Below the pieces are notes generated by a model. The model was given only the letters and a program-made list of their open reading frames with translations, had not been told where the DNA came from and did not search any database. The translations under genes were made by a program, and so were the position numbers. A DNA stretch of 64,000 nt from positions 175,929 to 239,928 of the forward strand of contig JBEKMQ010000002.1 of the NCBI GenBank assembly GCA_050008435.1. Reading direction: 5' to 3'. Positions within the stretch are counted from its first letter, which is position 1. Each line of letters starts with the position of its first letter. This stretch comes from Candidatus Bathyarchaeia archaeon. Lineage in GTDB: Archaea > Thermoproteota > Bathyarchaeia > Bathyarchaeales > Bathycorpusculaceae. Below, piece after piece: positions 1 to 31,380 of this stretch.

Positions 1-23
1 TAGCTTGAGTATTTCTCCTTTAA

Positions 24-89
24 CTTGAAAATCGCAGTGTTTAGCTGTATTCTCTACTTGAAAATCGCAGTGTTTAGCTGTATTCTCTA
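24..89. repeat. perfect 33-bp tandem duplication (2 copies) spanning the tfs stop codon
   Basis: cttgaaaatcgcagtgtttagctgtattctcta occurs at 24-56 and again at 57-89. Copy 2 holds the last codons and stop of the minus-strand TFS gene. Confidence 0.95.
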
Positions 90-2505: not shown

Positions 2506-3125
2506 TCAAAGCTTCCCTCTTCCGAAGTGAGCCCCTTCCCATAATCAAAAGCCGTTTTCCTTCCTTCAATCCTTCCGCATTTAAGGCAATGCATGCCCTG
2601 ACGCCTCGATTCCAACGTGCCACCGCAGCTTGAGCAGAACGCGTAGATGACGCCAAGTTCCTTGTCCTTAGTCGACAAATGGTAAACTTGGTTTTTCTCG
2701 CTGATCACCTTTGCCCTTATGATGTCTCCTGCCTTGCAAATCTCAAACATGGAATCAACATATCTCACGTGCACGTCGGAAATGTGCAGGACGCCCATGA
2801 AGGCGCCGGTAAGCTCCTTGTCTCCAACTTGGAAAATGCGCACGTTAGCGTTTTCAGGCTGGACTAATGACACTTGCCCCACTATTGTGCTTCCGAGCTT
2901 AGGCATCAACACCTCTCGACCGGCTGGACTGACAGAAACGCGTCTTGTCGCAAAATCAAGCATGGCCCTGCCGACGAGCTTAGAGTAGATCACACCATCT
3001 TTGACGAAAGTCCCTGCGTCCGGCACGAATTCTTCGATAACCCCTAAACGCTCGCCGGGGAGCACTAAATCCCCAGTTTTCGGTGCAGCTGGTTTTGCAT
3101 CCATTCTTAACCCTTTTCCCACCAT
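2502..3125 (-). CDS. csl4: exosome complex RNA-binding subunit Csl4
   Basis: S1-like core plus a C-terminal zinc ribbon (CSSCGG...CLKCG), in the conserved rpoL-csl4 neighbourhood. Confidence 0.8.
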   Translation of the reverse strand: MVGKGLRMDAKPAAPKTGDLVLPGERLGVIEEFVPDAGTFVKDGVIYSKLVGRAMLDFATRRVSVSPAGREVLMPKLGSTIVGQVSLVQPENANVRIFQVGDKELTGAFMGVLHISDVHVRYVDSMFEICKAGDIIRAKVISEKNQVYHLSTKDKELGVIYAFCSSCGGTLESRRQGMHCLKCGRIEGRKTAFDYGKGLTSEEGSFE

Positions 3126-3270
3126 CGCGTATTGACATCGTCACGTTCAAACTTAGTTAAATGTATTTACCCGCCTGCTGGGTAACTGTAGTTTTCATTG
3201 CCTATCAATAAACCTTTTGATCATTCACGCGGATAAACGCGTTTCCCACGCAGACCAGTCGACAAAGTCA

Positions 3271-3966
3271 TCAGCTTTCTATGACGTACAGGTCAACTAT
3301 GAACTCGTGTTTTCTCTTCGTGTGGAAATTGAACATATACGGAATCGACATTATCATAGCATAGACTGCCTTAATCTTGCGTCCCTGCTTCTCAATGATT
3401 CCTTCCAAGAAGGGAGAGGCCGAAACAGCCACGATGCCGGTCGAGCAAGATTTCACCATCCTATAGAGGGTCCTGTCGGCGTGCTGATCCTTGTGAAGGG
3501 AATAGACAGTTTTTCCCACTTCCAAGGCTTTCTCCAGAAACTTCCGGTCAGCTCCAACTCTCTGAACCCCGTACGGGGGATTCTGCAGCACCGTATCGAA
3601 ATCGCCTCGTATCGTACGCACGTCCGCGACGAGCCAGTCCGCCTTGTCTTTCAACCCGAGTCTTCTCGAGTTTTCAACCGCAACCTTAACGGCAGTTTTG
3701 TCTATATCTACTCCCAGAGCTTCCTTCGCGCCTAAGAACGCTGCACCCAAGGCTAATCTTCCCGTGCCACATCCCAAATCCAAAACTGACCTACCGAAAA
3801 TGCGATTGTCCGCGTAAGCGGCGACGTAGAGCATGCGTGCAGCAACATCCGCGGGAATCGTGTACTGCTCCATATCCGCTTTAGGCTCAGGATGAGGTTC
3901 AACACGAGAAAGAAGCATTTCCAATTCTAGTTTTCGAACAATCCTTTTCTGCATAGTTCTTCCCAA
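3271..3966 (-). CDS. class I SAM-dependent methyltransferase, METTL5-like (NPPY motif)
   Basis: LDLGCGTGRL (motif I) and LQNPPYG (motif IV). It sits between csl4 and dph2, as in many archaea. Confidence 0.7.
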   Translation of the reverse strand: MGRTMQKRIVRKLELEMLLSRVEPHPEPKADMEQYTIPADVAARMLYVAAYADNRIFGRSVLDLGCGTGRLALGAAFLGAKEALGVDIDKTAVKVAVENSRRLGLKDKADWLVADVRTIRGDFDTVLQNPPYGVQRVGADRKFLEKALEVGKTVYSLHKDQHADRTLYRMVKSCSTGIVAVSASPFLEGIIEKQGRKIKAVYAMIMSIPYMFNFHTKRKHEFIVDLYVIES

Positions 3967-4931
3967 GACATCTCGCCGAGAACCACTAAAACCTCATTGT
4001 ATGAAAGTATAGGTGCGCGGAATCTCGGGGCATCTTCTATCGTTAACCTCGGACACGCCGTGTTCACAAAGACATCTATCGTTGGAAACTCCATAAGCGC
4101 TTCCGGAGTGACTTCTTCAATCACGAACATGTAGGCAACCTTTCCTTTCTCTTCGAGCTTCCGCTTCAGCTGCGAAGCTAGCTCCAGATTCTTCTGCCCC
4201 GGCTTTAATCCCACAAGAACTCCAAATGTCCTCGCCTTTTGAGCCTCTTCCACGCTTCTCCATCGTTGTCTAATAATTCTTTCAGCCTCATCATCGATAG
4301 AGAAAGCCTCACAATTGTACGGGTCAGCAACCACCGTGGGTTTTAAGGTTGACAATGCTACGCCAAGGGCATGGAATCGACCTCCGCCGACAAAGAGAAA
4401 GGCCTCAACATCCTTTGCTACTGATTTAGCATTGCTGTAATCGCATCCTATAACCTGTCCAGGGTAGCTCAGTCTTCCAGCGTCACCCGTCATGACGGTT
4501 TTCCCGGCTCGAACGAGTATCTCCCTGACTGAGTCGATGGTCTGCACATGCTGGACCGTGGTGGTCAAACCGATATTGTTCCATTTTTCCAAGAGCGGCA
4601 GGGCTTTTTCAACAGCACTTTCAACGTCTAGCGTTGCTCTCGCCTCAACATAAATCGTAGGTACCGGCTCGTGTTTCACCAGCTTCGAATGCCCATAGTG
4701 AACGATCAGGTCCACGCCTAGACCTTCTGCATCTTGTGTGGCTAGATCACATGCGCCGTAGCAGGGATCCGCGGAAATCATAGGCAAAGCCCCAGTTTTT
4801 TCAATGAACCTGGCCAAACGCGGGGCTTCAGGCTTTAGGCCTTCAGGAAGCTGTAGCAGAACACGTTTGGCCCCGATTTTCAGTATCGCCTGTCGTACTC
4901 TTTCCTCTTCAAAATCATAACTCTTCATCAA
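3927..4931 (-). CDS. dph2: 2-(3-amino-3-carboxypropyl)histidine synthase (diphthamide biosynthesis Dph2)
   Basis: 334 aa with the YGACD, VHYGHS and FVGGGRFH motifs typical of archaeal Dph2. Confidence 0.8.
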   Translation of the reverse strand: MMKSYDFEEERVRQAILKIGAKRVLLQLPEGLKPEAPRLARFIEKTGALPMISADPCYGACDLATQDAEGLGVDLIVHYGHSKLVKHEPVPTIYVEARATLDVESAVEKALPLLEKWNNIGLTTTVQHVQTIDSVREILVRAGKTVMTGDAGRLSYPGQVIGCDYSNAKSVAKDVEAFLFVGGGRFHALGVALSTLKPTVVADPYNCEAFSIDDEAERIIRQRWRSVEEAQKARTFGVLVGLKPGQKNLELASQLKRKLEEKGKVAYMFVIEEVTPEALMEFPTIDVFVNTACPRLTIEDAPRFRAPILSYNEVLVVLGEMSWEELCRKGLFEN

Positions 4932-4994
4932 GCCACTTCCAAAGTATTGATGTTGCGAAGCTTAGCAAAGGAAAAGCAGAATGTGCAGCAGCTG

Positions 4995-7442
4995 CTATTC
5001 AGATGCCCATTTGAAACCTTGATTTCTCTTCGCAGAATGGCGCATGATCCTTTCATGTTGCTCTGCGAGCCTTTCAAGCACTATCTTGTGTTCTATACTT
5101 GCTACGAGCTTCTTGGTTGATATGACCGCATCGTTGTTTACTGATATGCTGTCTATTCCCACTCTCACTAGGAACTCAGCGAAGTCTGGCAGGTTTGATG
5201 GACCTTCGCCGCATATGGACACTGTTGTCCCATTCTCATGTGCGACCCTGATCAAATGCGCGAGTATCCTTTCAACGGCTGGGTCTCTTTCATCGAAGTA
5301 GCCCATTTGGCCTAAGCGCTCGGAATCCCTGTCAATCATCAGGATGCCCTGAGTCATATCGTTTGAGCCTATGGAGAACCCATCGCAGAGTTTTGAGAAT
5401 TCATCGGCAAGTATTGCGATCGATGGGGTTTCAGCCATGAACCATATCTTGAAATCCTTCGTTCTTTCAAGCCCTTCTTCGCGCATGATCTCCAATACTT
5501 TCTCTGCTTCCCAGACTGTGCGTACTACTGGAATCATGACCCATACGTTCTTGAGACCCCATTCTCTTCGGCACTTTTGTATCGCTTGGCATTCAAGCCT
5601 GTAGGCCTTCTCGTACCATTCGCTTATGTAGCGGCTGCATCCTCTCCAGCCCAGCATCGGGTTATTCTCCACGATCTCATACTTGTCGCCGCCTTTGAGC
5701 TCGCGGTACTCGTTGGTCTTGAAGTCGCTGAAGCGCACAACAACGGGACGCGGCTGTATTGTCCTCGCAACAGTCGCTATGCCCCCGGCCAGCTTATCGA
5801 TGAAAACCTGCGACCGCCCCGTCTCTATAAAGGACATAGGGTGCTCACCTATGTAGCTGGCCAGTATGAATTCCATGCGCATCAGACCGATGCCTTCGAA
5901 AGGCAAGTCTTTGTACTCTTCAACTTTTTCTGGCACGCCCAGGTTCATGTAAATCTTTGTTGCAGTCACGGGCACAGATTGGAAGACGCCTCCTGACACT
6001 GGCATGCCGGAAACACCAGTTCCGCCAGCAGAGGAGAGTTGCGCAGTCAGAGTCTGCAGTACACCTTCGTAGACGATGCCGCTTCTAGAATCAACGGTGT
6101 ACTTCTTTCCAGTGACCAGAAGCTTCGTAGCGTTCTCGGTTCCCACGACACATGGAATACCGAGCTCACGGCTGACGATGGCGGCATGGCAGGTCACTCC
6201 CCCCTTGTCAGTCACTATTGCCCCAGCCAGCTTCATGAAGGGCACATAGTCCGGATTAGTCATGTCAGTGACGAGCACGTCGCCTTTCTGCATCACTCTT
6301 GAAGCCTCTTCTGGGTCCATGACGACCTTTGCAACGCCTATTCCGAAGCCTCTTTTTCCCGCAGCGATTCCCCTAACTACAACCTTTAACATCTCTGCTT
6401 GCCCAGTTCCTTCCGCTTCGGCTTTGGATCGAGCCTCAGGCGTTTTTTGACTCCAGACAGTTTCAGGTCTCGATTGCACCATGAATATGTTACTAGGAAA
6501 AGGCAGATCCCTGTCGATTGCCCACTCGATATCTTGAGGCTTACCATAATGATCCTCAATACGCTTAGAAAGTTCTGCAAGCGTCCGGATCTCCTCATCA
6601 CTGACGCAAGGTTGCTCCTGTTTCTCACTGGGTACTTCTGCATGAATGGTCTTGCCAGTGTTCGGATCACGAACGTATTGGACAGTCTTCTTAGCAATGT
6701 GCCGCTCAATTATTCTCATTGTTTTCTTTTCAACCACAAAATCATCCGGCGTGACAGAGCCAGACACGACGGCCTCGCCTAGACCCCAATTGCCATCTAT
6801 CACGATCTGACCAGGGTCGCCCGTGACAGGGTTTATCGTGAACAGCACTCCCGCAACCTTGGAGTTCACCATCTTTTGAACGCCGACGCTTAAGAAGACC
6901 TTTTCATGCGCAAACCCCTTCTCATCACGGTAGAATATTGCACGCGGCGTGAAAAGGCTTGACCAGCATTTCACCGTGTACTTGAGAAGCTCGGAGATGC
7001 CTCGCACGTTCAGAAAAGTCTCCTGCTGACCGGCAAAAGATGCATCAGCCAAGTCCTCAGCCGTTGCGCTTGATCTCACAGCGACAAAAACATCGTTCAC
7101 GTTGAGTTTCTTGCCCAATTGCTCGTAAGCGGCTCTGATGGCATTCTCAATGTCCTTAGGCATGGGCGTTTCTTCAATCAACTCTCGAATCTTCTTCGAA
7201 GCCACCTCGTACAGCTTCGGGTCGCCAGGATTCGTCACAGTCTCCCTTATGATCTCGTATATCTTCGAGGATATCCCAGTCTCCTCGATGAACTTCTTAT
7301 ATGCATACGCCGTTAGAGCGAAACCTGGCGGAACAGGTATCCCCGCGCTAGTAATCTCCCCCAAATTTGCATTCTTCCCGCCTACTGAGGGGATGTCAGT
7401 TTTTCTCAGGCTCTCGAACCAAATAATCAAATCCTGACGCAT
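4995..7442 (-). CDS. ppsA: phosphoenolpyruvate synthase
   Basis: GGKNANLGE ATP-grasp N-terminus, TDKGGVTCHAAIVSRELGIPCVVG phosphohistidine domain, and a C-terminal PEP-utilising TIM barrel (GSNDMTQ). The ORF runs to 7484, but the Arg/Lys-rich 14-aa extension is unlikely to be translated. Confidence 0.95.
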   Translation of the reverse strand: MRQDLIIWFESLRKTDIPSVGGKNANLGEITSAGIPVPPGFALTAYAYKKFIEETGISSKIYEIIRETVTNPGDPKLYEVASKKIRELIEETPMPKDIENAIRAAYEQLGKKLNVNDVFVAVRSSATAEDLADASFAGQQETFLNVRGISELLKYTVKCWSSLFTPRAIFYRDEKGFAHEKVFLSVGVQKMVNSKVAGVLFTINPVTGDPGQIVIDGNWGLGEAVVSGSVTPDDFVVEKKTMRIIERHIAKKTVQYVRDPNTGKTIHAEVPSEKQEQPCVSDEEIRTLAELSKRIEDHYGKPQDIEWAIDRDLPFPSNIFMVQSRPETVWSQKTPEARSKAEAEGTGQAEMLKVVVRGIAAGKRGFGIGVAKVVMDPEEASRVMQKGDVLVTDMTNPDYVPFMKLAGAIVTDKGGVTCHAAIVSRELGIPCVVGTENATKLLVTGKKYTVDSRSGIVYEGVLQTLTAQLSSAGGTGVSGMPVSGGVFQSVPVTATKIYMNLGVPEKVEEYKDLPFEGIGLMRMEFILASYIGEHPMSFIETGRSQVFIDKLAGGIATVARTIQPRPVVVRFSDFKTNEYRELKGGDKYEIVENNPMLGWRGCSRYISEWYEKAYRLECQAIQKCRREWGLKNVWVMIPVVRTVWEAEKVLEIMREEGLERTKDFKIWFMAETPSIAILADEFSKLCDGFSIGSNDMTQGILMIDRDSERLGQMGYFDERDPAVERILAHLIRVAHENGTTVSICGEGPSNLPDFAEFLVRVGIDSISVNNDAVISTKKLVASIEHKIVLERLAEQHERIMRHSAKRNQGFKWASE

Positions 7443-7443
7443 T

Positions 7444-7962
7444 TCACTCAACAATTTTCGCCTCTTCCTCCTGCTTCTTCTCAACGACTATACGACATGG
7501 AATACAAAGTTTCGCGCTCCCTCGCTTCAAAGCGATCTTCGCCGTTTCAACGCCCTCCGCACCTACATGGACCACGATTATCGTCTGATCAGCCCTCACG
7601 CGCGCCGCGGTACCGATTGGTCTTCCGAAAGAAGCCCGCATGCCTTGCTGCAAACGATCAGCATGCGCGCCGAAGATCATCTTGTTCTCCCTGAGAATGT
7701 TATGTGGGTAGGGCAGAACGTCCAAACGATAATTGTTTACAAGCTTGTCCAGCAAAATACGGTTAGAGGCTATGCGAGCAGCCTCCAGAGAGACGTGTCT
7801 AATCTGAGCTTGCTCCAAGGCAATGAGCTTCGCTTCATATTCAAACTGCTTCTTCGTGTCTCCCATCGTGAACTTTGTTATTTTCGGTGGAGGAAAACCC
7901 TTCGTAAATTCCTTCCTCGTGTTAGATTGACCCTTAACGGGCCGATAGTTCTTTGCATGCAT
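7444..7962 (-). CDS. rpl10e: 50S ribosomal protein L10e (uL16)
   Basis: 172 aa. YRPVKG...FTKG.PPPKI and LEAARIA motifs of L10e. Confidence 0.9.
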   Translation of the reverse strand: MHAKNYRPVKGQSNTRKEFTKGFPPPKITKFTMGDTKKQFEYEAKLIALEQAQIRHVSLEAARIASNRILLDKLVNNYRLDVLPYPHNILRENKMIFGAHADRLQQGMRASFGRPIGTAARVRADQTIIVVHVGAEGVETAKIALKRGSAKLCIPCRIVVEKKQEEEAKIVE

Positions 7963-7995
7963 TTCAGATGCCCCTTCTGCATACCATAACGGTCT

Positions 7996-8003
7996 TATTT
8001 AAA
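7996..8003 (-). promoter_or_regulatory. putative TATA box for rpl10e
   Basis: TTTAAATA on the minus strand, about 34 nt upstream of the ATG at 7962. Confidence 0.4.
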
Positions 8004-8143
8004 CGTATATTGCAACATGCTTACGTCCTGAATCGCTGATTTATCTTCTGATTCAACAATACATATTCAGCATCTACAAAAACCAAATCACCCAAAACTT
8101 CAACTACAAATTGTTCACGTGTAGAGACCAAAATAAAAAGCTG

Positions 8144-8252
8144 AAAAACCGACCTAGGAGGAGGGGGTCAAATGTTCGCGTGATTTCAACCCAACATTTG
8201 GGTGCAACCCGCTTCTGCGATCAGCCCACGCGAGGCTTCATGCTGGAAACCC
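8144..8252 (+). repeat. structured repeat unit U1 (type I hairpin)
   Basis: AAAAACCGACCTAGGAGG leader. Hairpin CAAATGTT (8169-8176) / loop CGCGTGATTTCAACCC / AACATTTG (8193-8200). Tail ends in CTGGAAACCC. Confidence 0.85.
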
Positions 8253-8365
8253 AAAAAAAACCAGCCTAGGAGGGGGGAGGTGCGTTTTAAGCGTGTTTTC
8301 AACCCTAAAACGCAGTTTAACCCGCTTCGGCCATCAGCTCACACGAGGCTTCGCGTCAGAAACCC
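8253..8365 (+). repeat. structured repeat unit U2 (type II hairpin)
   Basis: Same architecture as U1. Hairpin TGCGTTTTA (8281-8289) / loop AGCGTGTTTTCAACCC / TAAAACGCA (8306-8314). Tail CATCAGC..CACGAGGCTTC..CAGAAACCC. Confidence 0.85.
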
Positions 8366-8649
8366 AAAAAATGACACGGGCAACTACTCCTGATTTCACC
8401 GCCAAAAGATGAAACCAAGTACAACAAACCTTTGAGTATGAGGCAACAACCTTCTCCTTCAAGCTGACCAAAGGAGGAACGGCGGCCGCTTGAACCTCGA
8501 TACAAAAAGCAGAATCTGCCATAAAATCAAAGCCTACAAGCGATCCGAATTTTCACCAACCGAAAACCCTAGACTGCAACGCTAAAATACAAGCATGCCC
8601 ATTAGCAATCGAATCGATCACAAAAAATGCCAGCAAAACCGACTCGACG

Positions 8650-9972
8650 GTGACGATCTTGTGCCCCGACGAACAAATGTACGTTTTCATCCCAGGAAAA
8701 AACTGGAAACTCTCCCTAGCTGAACTCATAACATATCTTCAGACCAGAAAGATCAATTTCAAAGTCACCGACCTTTCAAAACCATTCTTCATCATCGCAA
8801 CCAAAAGCATCCTAGACCCGAAGATAGTTGACAACCTCGGAGGCACCATAAAAGCCGGCAAAGTCCTATCACAAATACCCTCCGAAACTGTTGAAGACGC
8901 CTTCCTTCACAAGAAAGAACACGCTCTCGCAGAGATCAGAAACTACCTATTGTCCGACCACGTTTTCAACAATCTTTTCGGAAAACCCCTCACCAAAAAT
9001 GTCTTTGGAGCCAGCATATACTTCGAAAACCCCCGTTTCCTTCACGTCTCCAAGAAAATTCAAAGATTCGTCGGAAGCTGCCTCAAAGACGAATTAGCCC
9101 TACAGGGAACAAAAGCCAGCTTCATGGGATTCCCCGAGAAAAGACGACTCCCACAGCTTACGCACGTTGAAGTGCTAAAAAAAGGGTTGGCCGAACAAGG
9201 CAAAGAGATACTCTTCTGCATAAGCAAAGCACAAACCTTCATATCCAAGACATCGAGCGTGCACAACCCCTTCGAATTTCAAAAGAGAGACATCAGCAGG
9301 CCAGTTCAGCGAAAGATCTACTCAATCCCTCCGAGACTAGCCAAGATCATGATAAACCTGTCTACTTGCTTGCCTGGAGAAGCCCTGCTTGACCCCTTCT
9401 GCGGCGTCGGCACGATTCTTCAAGAAGCCCTGCTCCTCAAGGCTCAGGTAACAGGAATAGACATAGACCCATGGTGTGTCAACGCTTCCCGCACGAACCT
9501 TCAATGGCTCACGAATCAATATGGGCTGAAAGAGGCAAAATATACTGTATTGCCGGGTGATTCCCGCAATCTGACGGACAAAGTCAATAGAGAAACTATT
9601 GACTGCATCGTGACAGAACCCGACCTCGGACCACCCCTCCGCCACTTTCCGACTGATTCATATGCGAGGCGCATGGCCGGCAAGTTGAAACTCTTATACC
9701 ACTCTTTTCTGAAAGGCGCTCACGAAACATTAAGAGCTGAAGGAAACCTAGTCTTCGTAACACCTTACGTGAAAACACGCTCCGGAAACTTCATCACATT
9801 GGATCTTGAAGAAGAAGTGAAAGCAATAGGCTTCAAAAAGACCTACCCATTCGAGAAGAACGTCTTTGCAGATGGCAGCCCACTGGTCAAAGAACTGGCG
9901 ACCACATCGTCGCTCGTTGACATCGGAAAGAAACACAAGATCGGCCGAGAAATCAACATTCTCCAGAAATAA
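8650..9972 (+). CDS. putative RNA (tRNA guanine-N2-type, Trm11/UPF0020-like) methyltransferase
   Basis: C-terminal class I MTase with LDPFCGVGTILQEA (motif I) and IVTEPDLGPP in place of DPPY. The long N-terminal domain has no recognisable motif. Confidence 0.5.
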   Translation: MTILCPDEQMYVFIPGKNWKLSLAELITYLQTRKINFKVTDLSKPFFIIATKSILDPKIVDNLGGTIKAGKVLSQIPSETVEDAFLHKKEHALAEIRNYLLSDHVFNNLFGKPLTKNVFGASIYFENPRFLHVSKKIQRFVGSCLKDELALQGTKASFMGFPEKRRLPQLTHVEVLKKGLAEQGKEILFCISKAQTFISKTSSVHNPFEFQKRDISRPVQRKIYSIPPRLAKIMINLSTCLPGEALLDPFCGVGTILQEALLLKAQVTGIDIDPWCVNASRTNLQWLTNQYGLKEAKYTVLPGDSRNLTDKVNRETIDCIVTEPDLGPPLRHFPTDSYARRMAGKLKLLYHSFLKGAHETLRAEGNLVFVTPYVKTRSGNFITLDLEEEVKAIGFKKTYPFEKNVFADGSPLVKELATTSSLVDIGKKHKIGREINILQK

Positions 9973-10058
9973 CACCGCGCATCCAAACAGCTGCCCTGAT
10001 TAGCTGAAATAGAAAAGTGAACAGTTGCAGCAGCAATCTTCATCGTCTGAAGAAATCA

Positions 10059-10628
10059 TCACTCACGTATTGCCGGTAATCTTTTGTTCCTAAACCATGT
10101 CTTGGCGAGTTCATCATAATTCGAAAATACTTTCTTCATGATCGGAATATACATCTGCATCTCGTCGTCAGTCAAATACTGAAATTGATATTCTCCGCTA
10201 TACGGTGCCGGCTGACCTTCTCTGGTAACGAATTCTATGTGCATGAAAGGGTCTCCACGCTTGATTACTATCGAACGCCGGTCATTGCCCAAGTTCACAA
10301 GCTCCAGAGCGAGCCTTCCAACAAACCCGCTGTGAACTTTGGCCGCATTCAAGAATGACAAGCCCATCCTTCCGTACTTGCTCTTGGCGGTCAAGTGAGC
10401 AACGTAGCTAGGCGGGATAAAGACCACTTCATACGATATCAAATTCTTGTGCTCCAAGTAGTTCAAGGCCGTTTCTTCCTTGACGCTTAGAATGTAACCG
10501 TCCCCGTCAAGCAGGTCGTAATCATAGGGATATATGCACTTGTAGTTCTCAATGAGCTCTCTCAGCTTGTCCTTCCCCAACACACACACTAAGCCAGACC
10601 TCCAAAGCTTTTCTACAATACTGAACAT
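10059..10628 (-). CDS. dCTP deaminase/dUTPase-superfamily protein
   Basis: KSKYGRMGLSF..AAKVHSGFVGRLALELVNLG...I.RGDPFMHIEF parallels the Dcd SSxaRlGl / DPGf.G..TLEl.N motif series. Confidence 0.55.
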   Translation of the reverse strand: MFSIVEKLWRSGLVCVLGKDKLRELIENYKCIYPYDYDLLDGDGYILSVKEETALNYLEHKNLISYEVVFIPPSYVAHLTAKSKYGRMGLSFLNAAKVHSGFVGRLALELVNLGNDRRSIVIKRGDPFMHIEFVTREGQPAPYSGEYQFQYLTDDEMQMYIPIMKKVFSNYDELAKTWFRNKRLPAIRE

Positions 10629-10675
10629 TTCATATTAAATAGTTTCCGACAGAACAGACTGCGAAGGCGAACCAG

Positions 10676-11275
10676 TTGAAATGCGCATATTGCAGAAGAC
10701 CTGCGGTTTACGTGTGCATCAAGTGCGGAGCGCCGACATGTGAACTACATGCGAAAGAGTCTGTGGTATGCCCCTCATGCATAAGGAAAAAAGGGACAAA
10801 ACATACCGTTAAGAAAGTCTCATCGAAGAATGAGAAGGACAAGATTAGAGCATTGGTAAGACAGTTCTGGGGTGAAGAGGAGCAGTTGACTTTTAACATC
10901 AAATTCAATGTTTCAGAGCAACCAGCATACGTTGCCCAAGTGGGAAATGAATTCGCTGGATTCATCTCCTTAAGCGAAAACCAAGATAGTTTGATCATTG
11001 TGGCTCTAGGCGTACACCCTGAATACCAGGACTCCGGAATTGGTCACAGCCTGATCAAGAAAGCCGAGGCGGAAGCAACAAAATTGCAGAAGAAAAAGTT
11101 GCTCGTCTCAACTTCAAACGATGATTTGCCAGCTTTAGGCTTCTATCAGTCTCTCGGTTTTCAGATTTTCGAAGTAGTACCGAACGCCATAGCAGAAAAA
11201 CATGGGACGACACTTGCAGGAGTAGGCGGATTGCCCATCAGAGATGAGTTAAGGTTGCAGAAGACTCTCAAATAA
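10676..11275 (+). CDS. GNAT family N-acetyltransferase with N-terminal zinc ribbon
   Basis: CAYC...CIKCG..C...CPSC N-terminus, then the GNAT motif A region VHPEYQDSGIGHSLIKKAE. Confidence 0.7.
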   Translation: MKCAYCRRPAVYVCIKCGAPTCELHAKESVVCPSCIRKKGTKHTVKKVSSKNEKDKIRALVRQFWGEEEQLTFNIKFNVSEQPAYVAQVGNEFAGFISLSENQDSLIIVALGVHPEYQDSGIGHSLIKKAEAEATKLQKKKLLVSTSNDDLPALGFYQSLGFQIFEVVPNAIAEKHGTTLAGVGGLPIRDELRLQKTLK

Positions 11276-11923
11276 CTATGCGTCTCTGCTTCTAAACACG
11301 CGATTCCCAACGTGTCCAGCTTCAATTAGGACTATCGACTCGAAGAATGGTAAATCCCGCATAACAATGATTTGGGCTTTCAAGCCTTTCTCGCTGAAAC
11401 TATCCAGAGTCCTTTCGACGCTCGACAACGTTGACTGCAACAGTAGAATCCGACCGTCAGGCATCAAATGATTTAAAGATTGGCAGATGAACCTGTCTAT
11501 AATTTGCCTACCAGTTTTTCCACCAGCCCAAGCGCGTTCCAGCCAGGATTCACCCTCGCCAGGGCTTGTTGGAAGGTAAGGAGCATTGAAAAGAATTAAG
11601 TTGAACGGTTCGCTCATATTCAATGAACTAAGCAGGTCTCCTTGAATGAAGGAGAACTTGTCGATTACACGGTTTAGCTTTGCATTCTCGCGCGCGCAAC
11701 GAACTGCGTGAGGGTTGATGTCAACAGCGACAACTCTTGAAGCATTCGCCGCAGCAATTACGCCCAGGATCCCGCATCCAGCTCCCACATCAAGAACATG
11801 TTTGCCGCTCTCACCCTGAAGATACTCAGCAAAAAGAAACGAATCTTCAGCAGGTTCGTAAACGTGGTCATAAACGTTGAAGACATAGCCTTCGAAGAAC
11901 ACTCGCTTAGCTGAAGAGGACAT
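11276..11923 (-). CDS. HemK/Mtq2-type (N5-glutamine) methyltransferase
   Basis: VLDVGAGCGILG (motif I) and LFNAPYLP (NPPY-type motif IV). Conserved next to ksgA in archaea. Confidence 0.7.
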   Translation of the reverse strand: MSSSAKRVFFEGYVFNVYDHVYEPAEDSFLFAEYLQGESGKHVLDVGAGCGILGVIAAANASRVVAVDINPHAVRCARENAKLNRVIDKFSFIQGDLLSSLNMSEPFNLILFNAPYLPTSPGEGESWLERAWAGGKTGRQIIDRFICQSLNHLMPDGRILLLQSTLSSVERTLDSFSEKGLKAQIIVMRDLPFFESIVLIEAGHVGNRVFRSRDA

Positions 11924-12755
11924 TTGCCAATTCTCCGAAATCTTCGGGTGCTAACATCCGTACTCGCTCATCAGAATAAGGAACTTTAGAAGCAATCGCT
12001 TCAGCGTCTTGGACAGTCTTTGCGAGTTTACTGCGAAGAAAAATATGAACGGCATTCCTCACCTTTCTATTGCGCTGAGTGAACAGGGTTTGCATCAGCC
12101 TTGTGAACAGCAGTTCATTCCTCACGGTAAAAGGTTTTGACTTTCTGAGCTCTAATCGAACGATAATGGAGTTTACATCTGGTTGTGGATAGAACACATG
12201 TTTTGGCACCTCCTCGAAAAGTTCGCATTTTGCTCGATAATAAGTGAGAACTGTCAGCCACCCGTAGTCTTCGGTTCCCACAGGTGCTACTAGACGGTTT
12301 GCAAACTCCTTCTGAAAGATCAAGACCGAAGAGTCAAAACCTCTATCCAGAAGCCACAGAAGCAGACGCGAAGAAATCCGGTATGGTGGAATCGACACCA
12401 CTTTGTCGAACTGTGGGACATCAGTCCTAAGTACGTTGCCAGCAATTACTCTAACGTTAGGCACGTTTTTGAACTGTTCGAGTAATATTCTTATGAGCCG
12501 ATTATCTGCTTCGACTGCCAGGACGCTTCTGCACTTGCCTGTCAGAAAACGTGTCAAGAAACCCAGACCTGCACCGATATCCAGTGTCACGTCATCTTTA
12601 TCGAGGGAAGCATAATCGCTCATGCTCTGAATTATTGAAGGCTCAATCATAAAATTCTGTCCCAGTAGTCTATTCGGAGAGATATGATACCTTCGAAGAA
12701 GAAGCTTCGTTCTTTCTAGTAGACTCACGCCGTTCGTAAGCAAGTTTGATTGCAC
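11907..12755 (-). CDS. ksgA: 16S rRNA dimethyladenosine transferase KsgA/Dim1
   Basis: LGQNFM start motif, DIGAGLGFLT, IPPYRISS. Confidence 0.9.
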   Translation of the reverse strand: MQSNLLTNGVSLLERTKLLLRRYHISPNRLLGQNFMIEPSIIQSMSDYASLDKDDVTLDIGAGLGFLTRFLTGKCRSVLAVEADNRLIRILLEQFKNVPNVRVIAGNVLRTDVPQFDKVVSIPPYRISSRLLLWLLDRGFDSSVLIFQKEFANRLVAPVGTEDYGWLTVLTYYRAKCELFEEVPKHVFYPQPDVNSIIVRLELRKSKPFTVRNELLFTRLMQTLFTQRNRKVRNAVHIFLRSKLAKTVQDAEAIASKVPYSDERVRMLAPEDFGELANVLFS

Positions 12756-13330
12756 TACTGGGTTCTAGTGAAGAGCCTATACTTGCTATCGCCAGACAGC
12801 TCTTCCAAGACTCTTTTAGTCACTAACTTGACAGGGTTGGGCAACTCTGTGCGTTTCTGTAAGTCATCATAGCTTTCAAAAGGTCTCTTTTCGCGCTCGT
12901 TTATGACCTGCCACATGTACTTCTTGCCTATTCCAGGGATCAATTCCAACGCATGCATTCTCGGTGTTATAGCTCTCGCGCTGTTGAAGAAGTTTATGAA
13001 CCAGTTTTCGCGGCTAAGCACTGTTCTGGATATGACGGCTGGGAGTTCCATTTTTGCAGCAGCTGTTAGTTCTTCGTATCTTATTCTTCCGATGATATAG
13101 GTGATCTCTTCTCTTGGTTCTTTTCCGACGTAGACGCGGTCATGAGGTTTCAACGTCACTCCATCTTTTACCAGCGCTTCCAACAGAGTGAAGAACTCTT
13201 CGCCCATAAGCTGAAGCAGGGCTCCTGCTCGGTATCCGGCTCTTCCGGTCGGTCGTACTCCGGAACGGCCGTGCGGTAAGAAATCCAAGACGTAGGCGTA
13301 CTCTTCGTATCGCTTTTCCATCATGGCCAT
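12755..13330 (-). CDS. DUF655 family protein (HhH-containing, conserved archaeal)
   Basis: YAYVLDFLPHGR N-terminus and LELIPGIGKK helix-hairpin-helix. Conserved position beside ksgA. Confidence 0.75.
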   Translation of the reverse strand: MAMMEKRYEEYAYVLDFLPHGRSGVRPTGRAGYRAGALLQLMGEEFFTLLEALVKDGVTLKPHDRVYVGKEPREEITYIIGRIRYEELTAAAKMELPAVISRTVLSRENWFINFFNSARAITPRMHALELIPGIGKKYMWQVINEREKRPFESYDDLQKRTELPNPVKLVTKRVLEELSGDSKYRLFTRTQ

Positions 13331-13384
13331 AGTCTCTATTCTATGTTCTTATTGCTTTAAAAATGGTTGCTTGGCGAGACCGGG

Positions 13385-13723
13385 TTATTTGGTTTTTTCG
13401 TGTTCAACCAGGAGGTCTACAATAGTTTTCAACGCCGAAGCATCGATGATCTTACGACCACTGGTGAGAAAGACTCTTAACTCGTCAACAGTCTTGGGTA
13501 GACAGTTGATTATTTGCACCGCCTCTTCTTCTTCTAAGCCGAATTCTTTTGTAAGCTTCTCCACAAGTTTCGCAGCTACTTTCGGCTCGACTTTGGAGAA
13601 CTTGGATACATAGTCAAGGGTTCGACGCTGCAATTGATCTAGGTTTTCCTCGCCGAGAGACTCGAGCAACGTCTTGACTTCGGGAAGTGTTTGGTTTTTT
13701 TCCCCAACGTTTTCTTTTGGCAT
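13385..13723 (-). CDS. rpoF: DNA-directed RNA polymerase subunit F (Rpo4)
   Basis: 112 aa HRDC-like protein (EAVQIINCLPKTVDELR), immediately downstream of rpl21e as in other archaea. Confidence 0.75.
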   Translation of the reverse strand: MPKENVGEKNQTLPEVKTLLESLGEENLDQLQRRTLDYVSKFSKVEPKVAAKLVEKLTKEFGLEEEEAVQIINCLPKTVDELRVFLTSGRKIIDASALKTIVDLLVEHEKTK

Positions 13724-14020
13724 CTAATCACCTTTAAACGGCTCTATGTGTTCAGGTCTGACTATAATTTCCTTGACTGCGTTTCCCTGCGGAACGGTCA
13801 CCACGTAGCTTCGCCCACGCTTTTCAGTCACCGTACCGGTCTTTCCGTGAAAGCGTCTATGAGGCATCCCTTTCTGGATGCTTGGATCTATTCTCACGAC
13901 GACGCGGTTCCCGGGCTGATATTCTTGGAGCAGTTTGCTCATTCTTATTTTTCCGCGTTCTTTATGCTCTTTCTTCAATAACCGGCGTGTACCTGAACGA
14001 TAACCCTTTGACCCTCTCAT
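13724..14020 (-). CDS. rpl21e: 50S ribosomal protein L21e
   Basis: MRGSKGYRSGTR...HRRFHGKTG.V motifs of L21e. Confidence 0.9.
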   Translation of the reverse strand: MRGSKGYRSGTRRLLKKEHKERGKIRMSKLLQEYQPGNRVVVRIDPSIQKGMPHRRFHGKTGTVTEKRGRSYVVTVPQGNAVKEIIVRPEHIEPFKGD

Positions 14021-14031
14021 ATTCTCACTTG

Positions 14032-15363
14032 CTAAACTTTCATAATCACGTTTAGAACGTCAAGTTTTACTGGTTTGGCCTTGTTTTCAAGAATTTCTGA
14101 AACGTTGGGCGTCGTTCTTCCTTCATCTCCAGTCACGAGCTCCTTGACATAAAGTCCTCCTTGGCAACGTAGCTTCATCTCAAGTTTTCTCGGTGACAGC
14201 TTCTTTATGTCCACGTCGTATATGTACCTTTCCCGGGTCAGATCTGCACGTCTGTGAAGTACACGAATGGGCGTCTTCTGAGTGATCACGGAATTCTTCA
14301 GCCTATCTCTTAGACGATTTATGTCATTAGCTGCAACTGCCTTCTTGAACTCGACGATCAATCGGTATTCTTTCTGCGTGGACTCGCCTCTCTTCAGTTT
14401 TCTTACGGTGTTCTTGTCCGCAAACTTTAGGCCTGAAACTGCAACTTTCCCATTCCCATAGGCGTTCACCTCTTCTTCGAGTCTCTTGAGTTCCAAGAAT
14501 CGATGCTTAGGTCTTGTTATTTCGAGTACGAAAGGTCTGCCATGGCCTAACATGCGAGCGTCGATGTCCTCCCTGCCAGATGCATGAAACGATGATTTGA
14601 CACCTTCAGTTGTATCCAGGAAGGGTTTTCCAATAATTTCCTCTACTGACTCGAGGTACATCTTCCCAGTCCAGTTGCATTTTTCGCAACCCCTACCTCG
14701 ACATTCTGAGCAGAACCACTTTGACTGTGGGATGTTCCTCACGTATTTTCGATATCGTCCAGCGACGAACAAAGGGTTGATTTGGAGTCTTACAGACTCT
14801 GTATAGGGGTTCACCAGAACGACCACATCCGGTTTCATGAATTCCACGAGTTTACTGTTCTCTTCAGCAATTCTTTTGCCTATCAACCTTCCAAACTCGT
14901 TCCGCATACTTTCTCCACGATCTGTCGTGAACTCAGCTTTGAATTCATCCTCGCGCTCTTCGACACTAACGGGCAGTTCCGTTCCTACCAAGAAGCTGGC
15001 GTATTCGTAGGTTTCGAGCATCGTCAGAGCCTTACTTACCAAGTTTTCAACACTGTTGAATCTATCTTCGCACAGAAAACACCGTTTTAAAACGGTTTTC
15101 TTCGGTAAGTGCCCTTTCATTTTTTGAAGCAGTTCCTGTGCAGTCTTGGAGAAACCGTTGGTTGCAAGAGTTTTAAGAATCTTGACGCCTTCCTTGTCTG
15201 TTACAGAAATTGAATGTGCCTCCAGTGCTAAGATGAGTTTTATTGATCTTCCTCGTTCGTCGTTTTCGATTCCGTGACCTAGCAGGGCGAATTGTCTTCC
15301 TAGGCAATGGTCGCATAAAGGATGCTTTTCAATCATCTTTAGCGATTTCTGTAGAATGCTCAT
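14032..15363 (-). CDS. pus10: tRNA pseudouridine synthase Pus10
   Basis: CDHCLGRQFA zinc-binding N-terminus, THUMP-like middle, and the C-terminal catalytic region GREDIDARMLGHGRPFVLE. Confidence 0.85.
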   Translation of the reverse strand: MSILQKSLKMIEKHPLCDHCLGRQFALLGHGIENDERGRSIKLILALEAHSISVTDKEGVKILKTLATNGFSKTAQELLQKMKGHLPKKTVLKRCFLCEDRFNSVENLVSKALTMLETYEYASFLVGTELPVSVEEREDEFKAEFTTDRGESMRNEFGRLIGKRIAEENSKLVEFMKPDVVVLVNPYTESVRLQINPLFVAGRYRKYVRNIPQSKWFCSECRGRGCEKCNWTGKMYLESVEEIIGKPFLDTTEGVKSSFHASGREDIDARMLGHGRPFVLEITRPKHRFLELKRLEEEVNAYGNGKVAVSGLKFADKNTVRKLKRGESTQKEYRLIVEFKKAVAANDINRLRDRLKNSVITQKTPIRVLHRRADLTRERYIYDVDIKKLSPRKLEMKLRCQGGLYVKELVTGDEGRTTPNVSEILENKAKPVKLDVLNVIMKV

Positions 15364-15386
15364 AACGTATCCTCAGAATTGGCCCA

Positions 15387-16718
15387 CTATAGATCGAGGG
15401 GCATGCCCTTGCCAAGGAAGGGCAACTTCTTTTTTCTCCTTAGAGTTTTAAGCATTCGGCGCATCACGACGTACTGTTTCAGAAGCTCTTTCACTTCCTT
15501 CTCGCTTGTCCCCGAACCTTTGGCCACTCGTCTCATTCTTGACGCATTGAACATCTTTGGGTTCTCTTTCTCCTTGGGGGTCATAGACTGGATCATGACT
15601 CGCCACTTTTCAAGTCTGTCTTCGGCCGTGTTTAGCATGTCTTCGGGTATATTGTACGACATGCCTGGGAGCATTTTCAATAGCTTTCGGAATGTGCCCA
15701 TGCCTTTCATTGCTTCAAACTGTTCATACATGTCTGTTAGAGTAAACTTTCCGCTGAGAATGGCTTTGGCCTTTTTTTCTGGAACCCTAACCTCTGCTTC
15801 GCGGACTTTCTCGAGCAACGTTTCCAAGTCGCCCATGCCTAAGAGTCTTCCAACGAATCGTGAGGGAACGAAGGCCTCTATGTCTTCGACTTTTTCGCCT
15901 GTGCCGATGAACTTTATAGGCGCTCCAGTGGCGGCCACTGCAGAAAGCGCTCCGCCTCCTCTTGCAGAGCCGTCGAGTTTTGTCACAAGGATCGAACCTA
16001 TGGGTGTGGCTTTGTTGAAGGCTTCAGCTTGAACCATAGCTTGCTGGCCGATCGTGCCGTCAATTACAAGCATGACTTCGTCTGGTTTGATGTTGTTTTC
16101 AAGCGTTTTCATTTCTTTGATGAGTTCCTGCTCTTCCTTGTGGCGGCCTGAAGTGTCGATTATGACTATGTCCTTGTCTGTGAACTGCTTCAGTCCCTCT
16201 TTGGCGACCTTCACGGGGTCTTTAGCTTTTGTGTCGCCGTAGATCGGCACGTTTACTCGGTTTGCCAGCTGCTGAAGTTGTGGGTAGGCTCCTGGTCTGA
16301 ACGTGTCCGCACACACTAGTGCTGGTCTGAGCCCTCTTTTCTGGAAGTATCTGGCCAGTTTTGCGCCGTTCGTCGTCTTTCCTGAACCTTGTATGCCTAC
16401 GAGCATGATCATTTTTCTTTTTCCCGGTTCAAATCTTATAGGGACGGCTTTGTCTCCGAGGAATCGTGTCAGTTCTTCGTAGACGACTTTTATTATGTGT
16501 TCACGCCTCGAAACTCCTGGCGGGACCTTTTCTTTCAGGGCTCGCTCTTCTATTCGTTTCGAAATTTCAAGGACGAGTTTGACGTTGACGTCAGATTGCA
16601 GAAGAGCCCTTTGAATGTCACGAACAAGCTCTTTAACCGTAGCCTCGTCTACGACAGAAGCCTTGAAAACTTTCCTCAGCGCATCGTAGAGTGAAGAGCC
16701 TAAACGTTCTAAGGCCAT
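15387..16718 (-). CDS. srp54: signal recognition particle protein SRP54
   Basis: GIQGSGKTT P-loop, DTSGR and TKLDG motifs, plus a Met-rich M domain. The likely start is MALERLG (16718); the ORF extends to 16760. Confidence 0.95.
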   Translation of the reverse strand: MALERLGSSLYDALRKVFKASVVDEATVKELVRDIQRALLQSDVNVKLVLEISKRIEERALKEKVPPGVSRREHIIKVVYEELTRFLGDKAVPIRFEPGKRKMIMLVGIQGSGKTTNGAKLARYFQKRGLRPALVCADTFRPGAYPQLQQLANRVNVPIYGDTKAKDPVKVAKEGLKQFTDKDIVIIDTSGRHKEEQELIKEMKTLENNIKPDEVMLVIDGTIGQQAMVQAEAFNKATPIGSILVTKLDGSARGGGALSAVAATGAPIKFIGTGEKVEDIEAFVPSRFVGRLLGMGDLETLLEKVREAEVRVPEKKAKAILSGKFTLTDMYEQFEAMKGMGTFRKLLKMLPGMSYNIPEDMLNTAEDRLEKWRVMIQSMTPKEKENPKMFNASRMRRVAKGSGTSEKEVKELLKQYVVMRRMLKTLRRKKKLPFLGKGMPLDL

Positions 16719-16832
16719 GATTTTCTCCTGAGTTAAGAATCGTCTGGTCTTTAAATACATATTCCGTTGTGCGTGTTTGTTTCCAGCAAGTTTTTTACGG
16801 TGAGTTGATTTTTCATTGTTGAGGAATCATGG

Positions 16833-17576
16833 TTGAGTGAGATCAGCATTGTGGAAAAGGGTCGGATCCCTTCAGGTGCGGTCATGCTGTTCGGTTTTCC
16901 AGATGTAGGACTGGTCGGCGTTATAGCAGCATCGCATATGATTGAAGAGCTTAATCTGGCCGAAGTGGCTCAGGTGGAGTCAAGATTACTACCGCCGTTG
17001 ATTGTGCTTCATGAAGGGCTTCCGCACTCGGCGATAAGGATTTTTGGAAATCACGATGTCCTGTTGGCCGTTTCTGAGACTCCGGTGCCTGCCGACATGG
17101 TCTATCTGGTTGTTGATGCTTTGATTGATTGGGGAAGACAGAAGAAGGTTAGGATGATGATTTCGCTGAGCGGCATACCTGTTCAAGAAAGACAGGATTT
17201 GAAGGAACTGAAGGTGTTTGCTGCTTCATCAAGCGTAGAGGTGCTCACGGCTGTTAAAGCCAAGAGTATCGAGGTGTTGATGGAGGGGTACATGGTTGGC
17301 CCGCAGGCCGTAATGCTCATGCGGTGTGCTCAAATCGGGCTCCCGGCAACGGCGCTGCTTGCACAGTGTTTTCTTAACTACCCGGATCCAGAAGCAGCTG
17401 CTGAGGTTCTGAAGAGCTTGGCGAAGGTGACGGGGATAGGAGTTGACGTTGCAAAGTTGTTGGAGAAGGGCGAGGAGATTCGGCTTAAGGCAAGAGACGT
17501 TATGAAACGGACTCAGGAAGAGATGTCGAAGATGAAGAAGAGTCAAGAGTACGATATTCCGGTGTATGTTTCATGA
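16833..17576 (+). CDS. PAC2-family proteasome assembly chaperone-like protein
   Basis: LFGFPDVGLVGVIAASHMIE N-terminus is typical of the archaeal PAC2 (PF09754-like) family. Confidence 0.6.
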   Translation: MSEISIVEKGRIPSGAVMLFGFPDVGLVGVIAASHMIEELNLAEVAQVESRLLPPLIVLHEGLPHSAIRIFGNHDVLLAVSETPVPADMVYLVVDALIDWGRQKKVRMMISLSGIPVQERQDLKELKVFAASSSVEVLTAVKAKSIEVLMEGYMVGPQAVMLMRCAQIGLPATALLAQCFLNYPDPEAAAEVLKSLAKVTGIGVDVAKLLEKGEEIRLKARDVMKRTQEEMSKMKKSQEYDIPVYVS

Positions 17577-18051
17577 GGAGACGGTGATGGTGTCGATCAA
17601 GAAGAGACGTTCGGCCGCGGATGATTTTGATGTTTATTTTCGGGATTTGAGACGGGAGTTTGAAGAATGGGGAGGCAAGCTGTTCGAAAGCCCAAGTTGG
17701 AATCAGAAGGCCTCTACGATCGAGCCGCTTCGTGACATGATCGTGGCGCCGACCGAAGTCGTGGTGACTGTCGATCTGCCTTTCACGAGGGAGAACACGC
17801 TGCAGGTCAGGGCGCTTGATGAGAACACGATAGAGATTTCGGCCGAGATGAAGAGGAAGATGAGTTTTAGGGAGTTGGGCATAACACATCACGTGGGGGA
17901 ATTCCAGAGGTTTCATTTTCAGTCTCGCATTCCGGTGCCGGTGCAGATGAAGAAGATGAAGATCCGCTTCAGGAAAGGAATGCTGGAGGTTCATATTCCT
18001 CGCGGGCGCGCGCGTTCAGAAAGTAGAAGTCGAGCTCTGGGGCAAAAGTAA
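17566..18051 (+). CDS. Hsp20/alpha-crystallin-like small heat shock protein
   Basis: VVVTVDLPF..ENTLQVRALDENTIEISAE ... RFRKGMLEVHIPR follows the ACD beta-sandwich pattern. It overlaps the upstream gene by 11 nt. Confidence 0.6.
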   Translation: MFHEETVMVSIKKRRSAADDFDVYFRDLRREFEEWGGKLFESPSWNQKASTIEPLRDMIVAPTEVVVTVDLPFTRENTLQVRALDENTIEISAEMKRKMSFRELGITHHVGEFQRFHFQSRIPVPVQMKKMKIRFRKGMLEVHIPRGRARSESRSRALGQK

Positions 18052-18272
18052 CTTCCATTAGCATCGTTCAAGCAGGGCCAGAACGTTGAACTGCGGTTGA
18101 GCGTTATTTTATAAGCCTCAGCCCCATGTTGGATTCGTCACAAGTCAGACGGCTCTTCTAGCATCATCGGCTCTGCTCGTATGCTACGCGTTGCGTCGAA
18201 TTAAACGTTGATGGAAAGTCTTTTAACACGATTGTGACCTAAACTGTTGAGCGGTTCACTGAGTGAAAATCT

Positions 18273-18479
18273 ATGCCGGTAGAACGAGGTATCCATTTGG
18301 CCATTTTCGTCTTGTTGTTGATAGGCTTGTGTTCGCTGACTGGTTGGGTCAGCCATGCTTATTTGCCTGAGCTGATTCTGCAGGTGGCGGCCATAGCATT
18401 GAGTTGGGGAACGATTCTTCTGGTTCTCTACGCTGGCTTCAGAGCGCTACACTGGGACTGGTGGACAGAACATTCGTGA
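18273..18479 (+). CDS. small membrane protein (2 TM)
   Basis: 68 aa with two hydrophobic helices. No recognisable family. Confidence 0.4.
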   Translation: MPVERGIHLAIFVLLLIGLCSLTGWVSHAYLPELILQVAAIALSWGTILLVLYAGFRALHWDWWTEHS

Positions 18480-18500
18480 AAGAGAATCAGCATCATGAGC

Positions 18501-18563
18501 GGACCTGCGGTTTAGGGCTGAAAACACGCCAAAAACGCACCTCCCCCTCCTAGGTCGGTTTTT
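18501..18563 (-). repeat. structured repeat unit U4 (type II hairpin, truncated tail), inverted relative to 8253-8365
   Basis: The reverse complement reads AAAAACCGACCTAGGAGGGGGAGG TGCGTTTTT/GGCGTGTTTTCAGCCC/TAAACCGCA. Hairpin at 18506-18539. Confidence 0.8.
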
Positions 18564-30269: not shown

Positions 30270-30305
30270 CTATCGTTCACATTCACCCTGCAGCATACGG
30301 CGATT

Positions 30306-31361: not shown

Positions 31362-31380
31362 GCGCAACCCGAGTCTATGT

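Follow-up and report, generated by a model that had tools for sequence, protein, structure and literature searches.

A dispersed family of hairpin repeats in Bathyarchaeia, arranged in polar head-to-tail arrays

Bathyarchaeia are abundant, uncultured archaea. Our literature searches found no interspersed repeat family or small-RNA family described from them. Several known systems can be compared with the repeats presented here. The BOX elements of Streptococcus pneumoniae (boxA-boxB(n)-boxC) are modular and polar, with variable internal modules placed head to tail and a distinct terminal module. They are intergenic and have no transposase of their own. To our knowledge, their modules do not carry a conserved-loop hairpin each, and no link with strand asymmetry has been reported for them. 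IS200/IS605 elements and REPs are recognised as hairpins, produce no target duplication and insert in a fixed orientation, in the lagging-strand template or at stalled forks (PMC5027513, PMC6006769, PMC3733652). REPs are related hairpins processed by Y1 enzymes (PMC5027513, PMC6006769). They are thought to be processed as single-stranded DNA, are substrates for rearrangement and are sometimes found in mRNAs (PMC3733652, PMC2817692, PMC6006769). A tetranucleotide tag, GTAG or CGTC, is found at the 5' foot of the palindrome (PMC3733652), and REPs alternate in orientation within the BIME mosaic (PMC2817692).

The DNA analyzed here is a stretch of 64 kb from a member of the Bathyarchaeia, which we call the window. 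It contains four units in two head-to-tail arrays, at 8144-8365 on the + strand (array 1) and at 18686-18501 on the - strand (array 2). Units are composed, in this order, of an A-run, a box CCGACCTAGGAGGGGGG, a 9-bp hairpin and a variable linker, and are classified in types according to their hairpins. The features found in the window are the following:

8144-8252, + strand: unit A, type I, found by sequence and loop match (type I profile E = 4.6e-32); A-run 8144-8148, 5' box CCGACCTAGGAGGAGGGGG 8149-8167, 5' arm TCAAATGTT 8168-8176, loop 8178-8192, 3' arm AACATTTGG 8193-8201, linker 8202-8252
8253-8365, + strand: unit B, type II with a linker, found by loop match (type II profile E = 9.7e-24); A-run 8253-8260, 5' box 8261-8280, 5' arm TGCGTTTTA 8281-8289, loop 8291-8305, 3' arm TAAAACGCA 8306-8314, linker 8315-8365
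8366-8430 (about), + strand: decayed third unit (AAAAAATGACACGGG...CTGATTTCACCGCCAAAAG), which aligns with the intact third unit of the orthologous L059 and L040 arrays
18564-18686, - strand: unit C, type I, found by loop match (type I profile E = 3.9e-32); partial linker first, 18674-18686, A-run 18673-18668, loop 18638-18624, stem TCAACTGTT/AACAGTTGA
18501-18563, - strand: unit D, type II, terminal and without a linker (type II profile E = 9e-24); A-run 18563-18559, loop 18529-18515, end GCAGGTCC
8366-18500, no strand: segment bounded by the two inverted arrays, inverted in the relative L114 with its breakpoints in the arrays

The original prediction, which described these four units as copies of a candidate structured RNA, placed them correctly, as confirmed from the sequence and from loop matches. 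The loop pattern GCGTGWTTTCARCCC has exactly four matches in the 64 kb (8178 and 8291 on the + strand, 18624 and 18515 on the - strand), while 0.52 are expected by chance and none of 100 shuffles reaches four. Profiles built from 70 and 57 outside copies find the same four units and no others in the window. When the four are aligned, the mean column identity is 68%. The conserved loop is indeed found between unrelated stems, those of units A and C in type I and those of units B and D in type II, and the compensatory double change noticed between the two type I copies is real: A-T is replaced by C-G. On the other hand, a 3' module (CATCAGC..CGAG.CTTC..GGAAACCC) had been attributed to all four units. 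It is found in three of them but not in the fourth, and in the whole family it is only one of several poorly conserved linkers.

A metagenome scan with a pattern made of the 5' box plus the loop found 95 stretches, with several arrays per large contig: 5, 7 and 4 in contigs of 629, 436 and 397 kb. From these stretches 186 units were extracted, 151 of them unique, which correspond to 38-39 independent genomic sites approximately. The samples are peat and sediment metagenomes, and the names of the homologues of the flanking methyltransferase indicate that the host belongs to the Bathyarchaeia. All copies stem from a few closely related populations, with orthologous flanks 88-100% identical; gene calls around loci outside the window are ORF heuristics. 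A stricter pattern (loop plus 3' module) gave only three bacterial chance matches in species-representative genomes. Five chance matches in viral contigs had neither box nor stems, and plasmid and phage collections showed no similarity to the units. The repeats are a previously undescribed family, dispersed in the genomes of a narrow clade of Bathyarchaeia.

The conserved core of the family has about 65 nt: the A-run, the box, the 9-bp hairpin, usually with the loop GCGTGNTTTCARCCC, and a tail (T)AGGTC. The hairpin, with its 9-bp stems and a loop of 15-16 nt, has 34 nt in all. Cores are found head to tail in intergenic DNA, with interchangeable linkers between them. Arrays hold from one to four units, none has been seen inside a credible gene, and all the units listed share the orientation of their array neighbours. 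The repeats have sharp boundaries, which lie 40-60 nt ahead of the first loop and 20-30 nt past the last. There are four main hairpin types. Type I has the stem TCAAxyGTT/AACy'x'TTG. Type II, with the stem TGCGTTTT/AAAACGCA, is usually the last unit of the array and ends in GCAGGTC, without a linker. Type III corresponds to GGCCGTC...GATGGCC, and type IV, without the conserved loop, to GGATGTTnnnAACATCC. Conservation in the family is in fact highest in the A-run plus the 5' box, not in the loop: GGAGG(G)n is invariant and the T-run, on the opposite strand, is almost invariant. Copies diverge by 0-10% per position in the core, from the A-run to (T)AGGTC, and by 20-60% in the linker.

The predicted hairpin with compensating stem changes holds when homologues are examined. 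In 86 distinct type I and type II hairpins, 88.5% of the cells are paired, against 65.4% after shuffling, and pairing reaches at most 47% when the register of the stem is slid. Six of the nine stem pairs change on both sides. Within type I, 31 copies have C-G at the polymorphic pair, 22 have A-T there and 17 have a mismatch (Fisher p = 1.8e-5). Relatives present further stems, such as GTATTTTG/CAAAATAC in L119 and TTGTGTTTTGT/ACAAAACGCAA in L117. Pairing is kept across at least four stem sequences, and the hairpin, on which selection for pairing acts, is maintained through complete stem replacements. These changes represent a few events inherited by many copies, and they are equally expected for a hairpin formed in single-stranded DNA.

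We have also searched for known RNA genes. The earlier failure to recognise an RNA family is borne out by Rfam 15 (including C/D-box, H/ACA, riboswitches and SRP), which gives no gathering-score match in the 64 kb; with a permissive threshold, two matches (E about 8) appear in 7960-8660, both outside units A and B. A scan for tRNA and tmRNA finds none in the window. A tRNA-like stretch is present directly after the orthologous array in L040 (about 4900-5020) and at the same locus in L059; it reads as an intron-containing tRNA on the opposite strand, and ARAGORN made no call. Some other interpretations of the units were rejected. The loop might be read as a K-turn or C/D box, but UGAU is only present in copies with A at the variable position. 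The short ORFs which run through the units are repeat artefacts: the length of the G-run varies and the ATG is not conserved. A linker helix, CAGCA/UGCUG, shows uncompensated changes. The comparison of G.U with A.C stem mismatches, which might indicate the strand, is contradictory and gives no consistent signal. A double change from T-A to A.C in nine copies makes a G.U pair only on the T-run strand, while stem position 8 is U.G on the A-run strand in 56 of the 70 type I copies.

The position of the arrays relative to genes does not follow any rule. Independent sites lie between divergent ORFs in 10 cases, convergent in 8, tandem-opposed in 8 and tandem-co-oriented in 6; when all arrays are counted the figures are 16, 17, 20 and 14, in the same order (chi-square p = 0.77). 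The downstream gene faces the array in 45 cases out of 82 (p = 0.44). An oligo-T terminator had been proposed on the strand opposite to the A-run. T5-8 is indeed found on the reverse strand of every unit, but its orientation to genes is inconsistent, and its use as the terminator of a gene is rejected. Array 1 sits between rpl10e (7444-7962, - strand) and a gene for a Trm11-like methyltransferase (8650-9972, + strand). In array 2, the end of unit D and the stop codon of a conserved membrane ORF of 68 aa (18273-18479, + strand) are 21 nt apart. No recurrent protein family is found beside the arrays, except ABC ATPases and surface proteins, and the segment between inverted arrays in L048 contains ordinary metabolic genes.

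The family works like the REP/BIME or BOX mosaics and is a kind of interspersed palindromic repeat. As in REPs and BIMEs, we find short intergenic multicopy palindromes in composite mosaics, with variable linkers and a conserved hairpin. The size also corresponds to a REP (an extragenic palindrome of 20-40 bp in many copies): 34 nt, with 151 unique units at about 38 sites. Nevertheless, the host is archaeal, the stems are A/T-rich with a large conserved loop of 15-16 nt, and there is an additional conserved 5' box with its A-run. In place of the REP tag at the 5' foot, type I has its GTAG on the 3' side, 2 nt from the stem (GGGTAGG), with the opposite polarity, and type II has GCAGGTC. Units are head to tail, among the units listed, instead of alternating as in BIMEs. 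No RAYT (Y1) or other Y1/HUH transposase was found adjoining the arrays, and the annotated genes of the window (about 5-11, 16.8-19.9 and 26-63 kb) include no RAYT, transposase, integrase or member of the Y1_Tnp family.

The absence of long terminal inverted repeats and of target duplications is shared with IS200/IS605 elements. The only terminal inverted repeat is GACCT(A)...(T)AGGTC, with 5-7 bp and no covariation, and the longest word shared by the flanks has a mean of 3.67 nt, compared with 3.44 +/- 0.15 for shuffled pairings. The ends of IS200/IS605 elements function by means of hairpins on one strand, with an orientation tied to the single-stranded DNA of the fork (PMC5027513). The family differs in having tandem units, with no tnpA or tnpB found near the arrays and no pair of left and right ends enclosing a cargo; moreover, its polarity corresponds to a local skew at the kb scale, not to a demonstrated direction of replication. 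Archaeal MITEs (Sulfolobus, Halobacterium, Haloquadratum) are likewise small non-coding multicopy intergenic elements (PMC10969869, where BOX elements are also named), but, unlike the family described here, where none of these was found, they have a parent IS, target-site duplications and terminal inverted repeats of at least about 10 bp. The original prediction had considered the terminus of an IS or MITE as the competing identity. That competing identity holds in spirit, for this is a dispersed IS- or MITE-like repeat, although no known IS or MITE terminus is matched. With BOX the family shares modular, polar, head-to-tail arrays with a distinct terminal unit, here type II, while sequence and host are unrelated. 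A CRISPR array was also considered and rejected: the linkers fall in a few recurring families and arrays have only 1-4 units. Failing the defining tests of REPs, MITEs and CRISPRs, the family represents a distinct form of interspersed palindromic repeat, an archaeal counterpart to REP/BIME and BOX with a different architecture.

Base composition around the arrays is strongly asymmetric. We have calculated the skew as (A+C-G-T)/N on the array-forward strand, which is the strand with the A-run and GGAGG, at 38 sites:

250 nt upstream: skew +0.23, positive at 37 of 37 sites
+250 to +500 nt: skew +0.16, positive at 32 of 33 sites
+0.5 to +1 kb: skew +0.17, positive at 29 of 31 sites
+1 to +1.5 kb: skew +0.14, positive at 25 of 27 sites
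beyond 4-6 kb: skew about 0

The skew is highest at the arrays and fades over about 4 kb; its sign is equal on the two sides, and its A-T and C-G components make similar contributions. At third codon positions within 1 kb downstream, also on the array-forward strand, it is +0.37 in co-oriented ORFs (15 of 16 positive) and +0.26 in opposed ORFs (10 of 13 positive). We can reject the orientation of genes and codon preference as its cause: both kinds of ORF have the same sign, and array-less orthologues are balanced. The skew of the window (+ strand) mirrors its two inverted arrays, with values of +0.25 and +0.18 at 8-10 kb, a reversal of sign at about 12 kb, and values of -0.18 and -0.14 at 16-18 kb. 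Two zones can be defined:

7444-9972, asymmetry zone of array 1: + strand A+C-rich; third-position skew +0.28 in rpl10e and +0.40 in the methyltransferase gene
15387-18479, mirror zone of array 2: + strand G+T-rich; third-position skew (window + frame) -0.25 in SRP54, -0.37 in PAC2 and -0.44 in Hsp20

For the methyltransferase gene, the third-position skew is +0.40, +0.52 and +0.48 where array 1 is present (three genomes), and +0.04, +0.21, +0.01 and -0.02 where it is absent (four relatives); rpl10e reaches 0.70 in L114. The shift is mainly from T to C and from G to A on the forward strand, that is, from A to G and from C to T on the T-run strand. The orientation of arrays is locked to the local asymmetry in base composition, not to the direction of genes. 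The link is imperfect: near site 2 the skew is equally strong in L115, which is array-free, and that of L047 spans the whole 13-kb locus with no peak at the array. In L115, the orthologues of 10059-10628 and 15387-18051 have third-position skews of 0.6-0.78, whose sign differs between genes. It seems that, in general, these genomes have patchy strand asymmetries at the kb scale. Since the orientation of an array predicts a very strong local asymmetry at synonymous sites, exposure of single-stranded DNA and the polarity of replication or repair become testable from sequence.

Comparison of related loci allows us to follow the turnover of the arrays, although no insertion event was observed between close strains, only unit turnover and deletion. 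The two arms are of the same type in 129 of 134 units. The other five are chimeras (I/II and III/II), which the comparison of orthologous loci (L005 with L057, L031 with L048) identifies as deletions between loops. At three loci a type I stem contains the reverse complement of the loop; such an inverted loop is a flip at the DNA level. L040 and L059, whose array locus is orthologous to site 1 of the window, have flanks 97% identical, and yet the first unit of one, of type I, is replaced in the other by types IV and III. Site 1 is empty in L115, L116, L117 and L118, with a spacer of 220-490 nt and a methyltransferase identity of 57-69%; a single diverged unit is present at site 2 of L117. Recombination between cores adds units to the arrays, removes them and exchanges them.

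Larger rearrangements are also found. In L114 (72% identity) both arrays are present, with type IV units, and the segment between them is inverted: its positions 2959-12860 match 8650-18565 of the window on the + strand, while 12998-14280 match 8081-6799 on the - strand. The outgroups L115 and L116, unlike L114, are collinear with the window. The two inverted arrays are the breakpoints of this 10-kb inversion. The family also breaks assemblies: the L119 contig, with 10,242 nt, begins in array 1 and ends in array 2. Both effects are relevant to the reconstruction of genomes from metagenomes and to synteny analyses.

What these units are may be explained in several ways. The original prediction of a discrete structured RNA gene of about 100 nt is not supported: the units belong to a dispersed repeat with some 38 sites, their orientation to genes is random, they fold in an ordinary way, and neither the outer helix nor the linker covaries. 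We favour a lineage-specific, non-autonomous, strand-polar repeated DNA element of Bathyarchaeia which would be handled as single-stranded DNA, a reading that we consider evenly balanced between being right and wrong. The hairpin would be read on one strand, probably the G+T-rich T-run strand, in the way in which HUH/Y1 enzymes read REPs and IS200/IS605 ends on the lagging-strand template; both the enzyme and the single-stranded intermediate are putative. Copies would then be homogenised and rearranged by homologous recombination, and any RNA structure would arise only incidentally, from read-through transcription. Such reading of a single strand would account for the polarity as well as for the selection for pairing. 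Against this explanation, the skew is local, at the kb scale, and roughly symmetric around the arrays, not as a replichore-wide replication bias would give, and L115 is skewed near site 2 with no array there. The missing REP tag, the head-to-tail order of units, the lack of target-site duplications and the negative search for a Y1/HUH gene beside arrays and among the annotated window genes count against it as well. A purely selfish repeat would also not need the tight conservation of the A-run/T-run and the loop, which exceeds that of a decaying repeat. Small structured RNAs might still be made from the T-run strand, an alternative that we judge unlikely. Each would combine the outer helix GACCUA/UAGGUC with the 9-bp hairpin, an exposed C-rich loop ACCCCCCUCCU and an oligo-U terminator, and the loop, similar to an anti-Shine-Dalgarno, would act on ribosome-binding sites or bind a protein; if this strand is transcribed, the family would be a multi-copy anti-Shine-Dalgarno RNA. 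The minimum free energy fold of the reverse strand agrees with this arrangement in both consensus cores (outer helix, hairpin, free CCCCCCUCC C-rich loop, then U5-8). The near invariance of the T-run, the covariation of the hairpin, the G.U pairs of the nine copies mentioned above and the start of several arrays 12-21 nt past a stop codon on the T-run strand also point to it. However, folding z-scores are only -1.1 to -1.3 for cores on this strand and -1.0 to +0.7 for whole units, the outer helix CCGACCTA/TAGGTCGG is conserved in sequence without any covariation, and the U.G at stem position 8 speaks for the other strand. There is no TATA-like element inside the unit. A strict TATA pattern is uninformative for the flanks, and with a looser test A/T words similar to promoters are not enriched (14 of 38, compared with 29% in random sequence and 53% upstream of ORFs). 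With random orientation to genes, antisense or read-through transcription would be the only source of RNA for one half of the arrays. In addition, loop-inverted and chimeric copies persist, types turn over fast between relatives, and the lack of an Rfam match counts on the same side. A leader or UTR element on the forward strand, whose GGAGG boxes would mimic a Shine-Dalgarno sequence and regulate the downstream gene, is very improbable. The invariant GGAGG(G)n agrees with it, as does array 1, upstream of the methyltransferase gene and on its strand, but array 2 faces the 3' end of a gene, neighbouring genes are mutually unrelated, the forward-strand fold is inconsistent between types, and only one fifth to one quarter of the arrays are co-oriented with the genes on both sides; these orientation statistics largely refute it.

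The skew itself suggests another explanation, a cis-acting polar DNA element of the host which would cause the local asymmetry. A nick site specific for one strand, or a pause site for forks or transcription, could play this role; it would leave the T-run strand single-stranded, or make it the repair template, for a few kb on both sides. We regard such an element as rather improbable. It fits the peak at the arrays with equal signs and a decay of about 4 kb, the skew of site 1 in the three genomes with an array and its absence or weakness in the four without, and a substitution pattern of the deamination type on the T-run strand; loop, box and A-run are also conserved beyond what the decay of selfish copies predicts. 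But L115 is equally skewed near site 2 without an array, the skew of L047 is not centred on its array, no protein partner is known, and a housekeeping signal would not usually have a narrow distribution with turnover of types. Models of double-strand-break resection, of a simple origin or of a simple polar fork barrier are rejected: each predicts that the sign changes across the array, while the same sign is found on both sides. The stronger claim, that arrays create a strand-specific mutation bias at the kb scale instead of merely following it, seems doubtful to us. By one route, a strand-specific nick or persistent single-strandedness of the T-run strand would let deamination-type changes there (C to T, A to G) become fixed to a distance of about 4 kb on either side, and so drive neighbouring third codon positions to +0.4 to +0.7, whatever the direction of the gene. 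If true, arrays would represent a novel type of archaeal local mutator or strand-discrimination element.

Some minor features of the window should also be mentioned. A non-coding block upstream of rpl10e (about 8035-8085, CTGATTTATCTTCTGATTCAACAATACATATTCAGCATCTACAAA) is recognisable in L115, L116 and L117, and partly in L114, and a similar word is found at 16739-16764, between SRP54 and PAC2: they may be a shared promoter or leader motif. The spacer between array 1 and the methyltransferase gene has two population haplotypes at 8478-8530, GGCGGCCGCT in one and AGTGGCCACT in the other, with clustered changes which preserve a palindrome. The very start of the window (23-88) is an exact tandem duplication of a 33-nt unit (ACTTGAAAATCGCAGTGTTTAGCTGTATTCTCT). 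Finally, a second, unrelated family of hairpin repeats is found at 29112-45674, clustered in a stretch partly poor in long ORFs. Its stem is TTGGTTGGTTGG/CCAACCAACCAA, with a variant TTTGGGTTTGGGG/CCCCCAAACCCAAA, and its conserved loop is GGATAAAACTTTACC. It has 11 matches with at most three mismatches, compared with 1.7 expected; examples are 30305-30339, 33459-33491, 37287-37325, 39784-39819 and 42167-42203.
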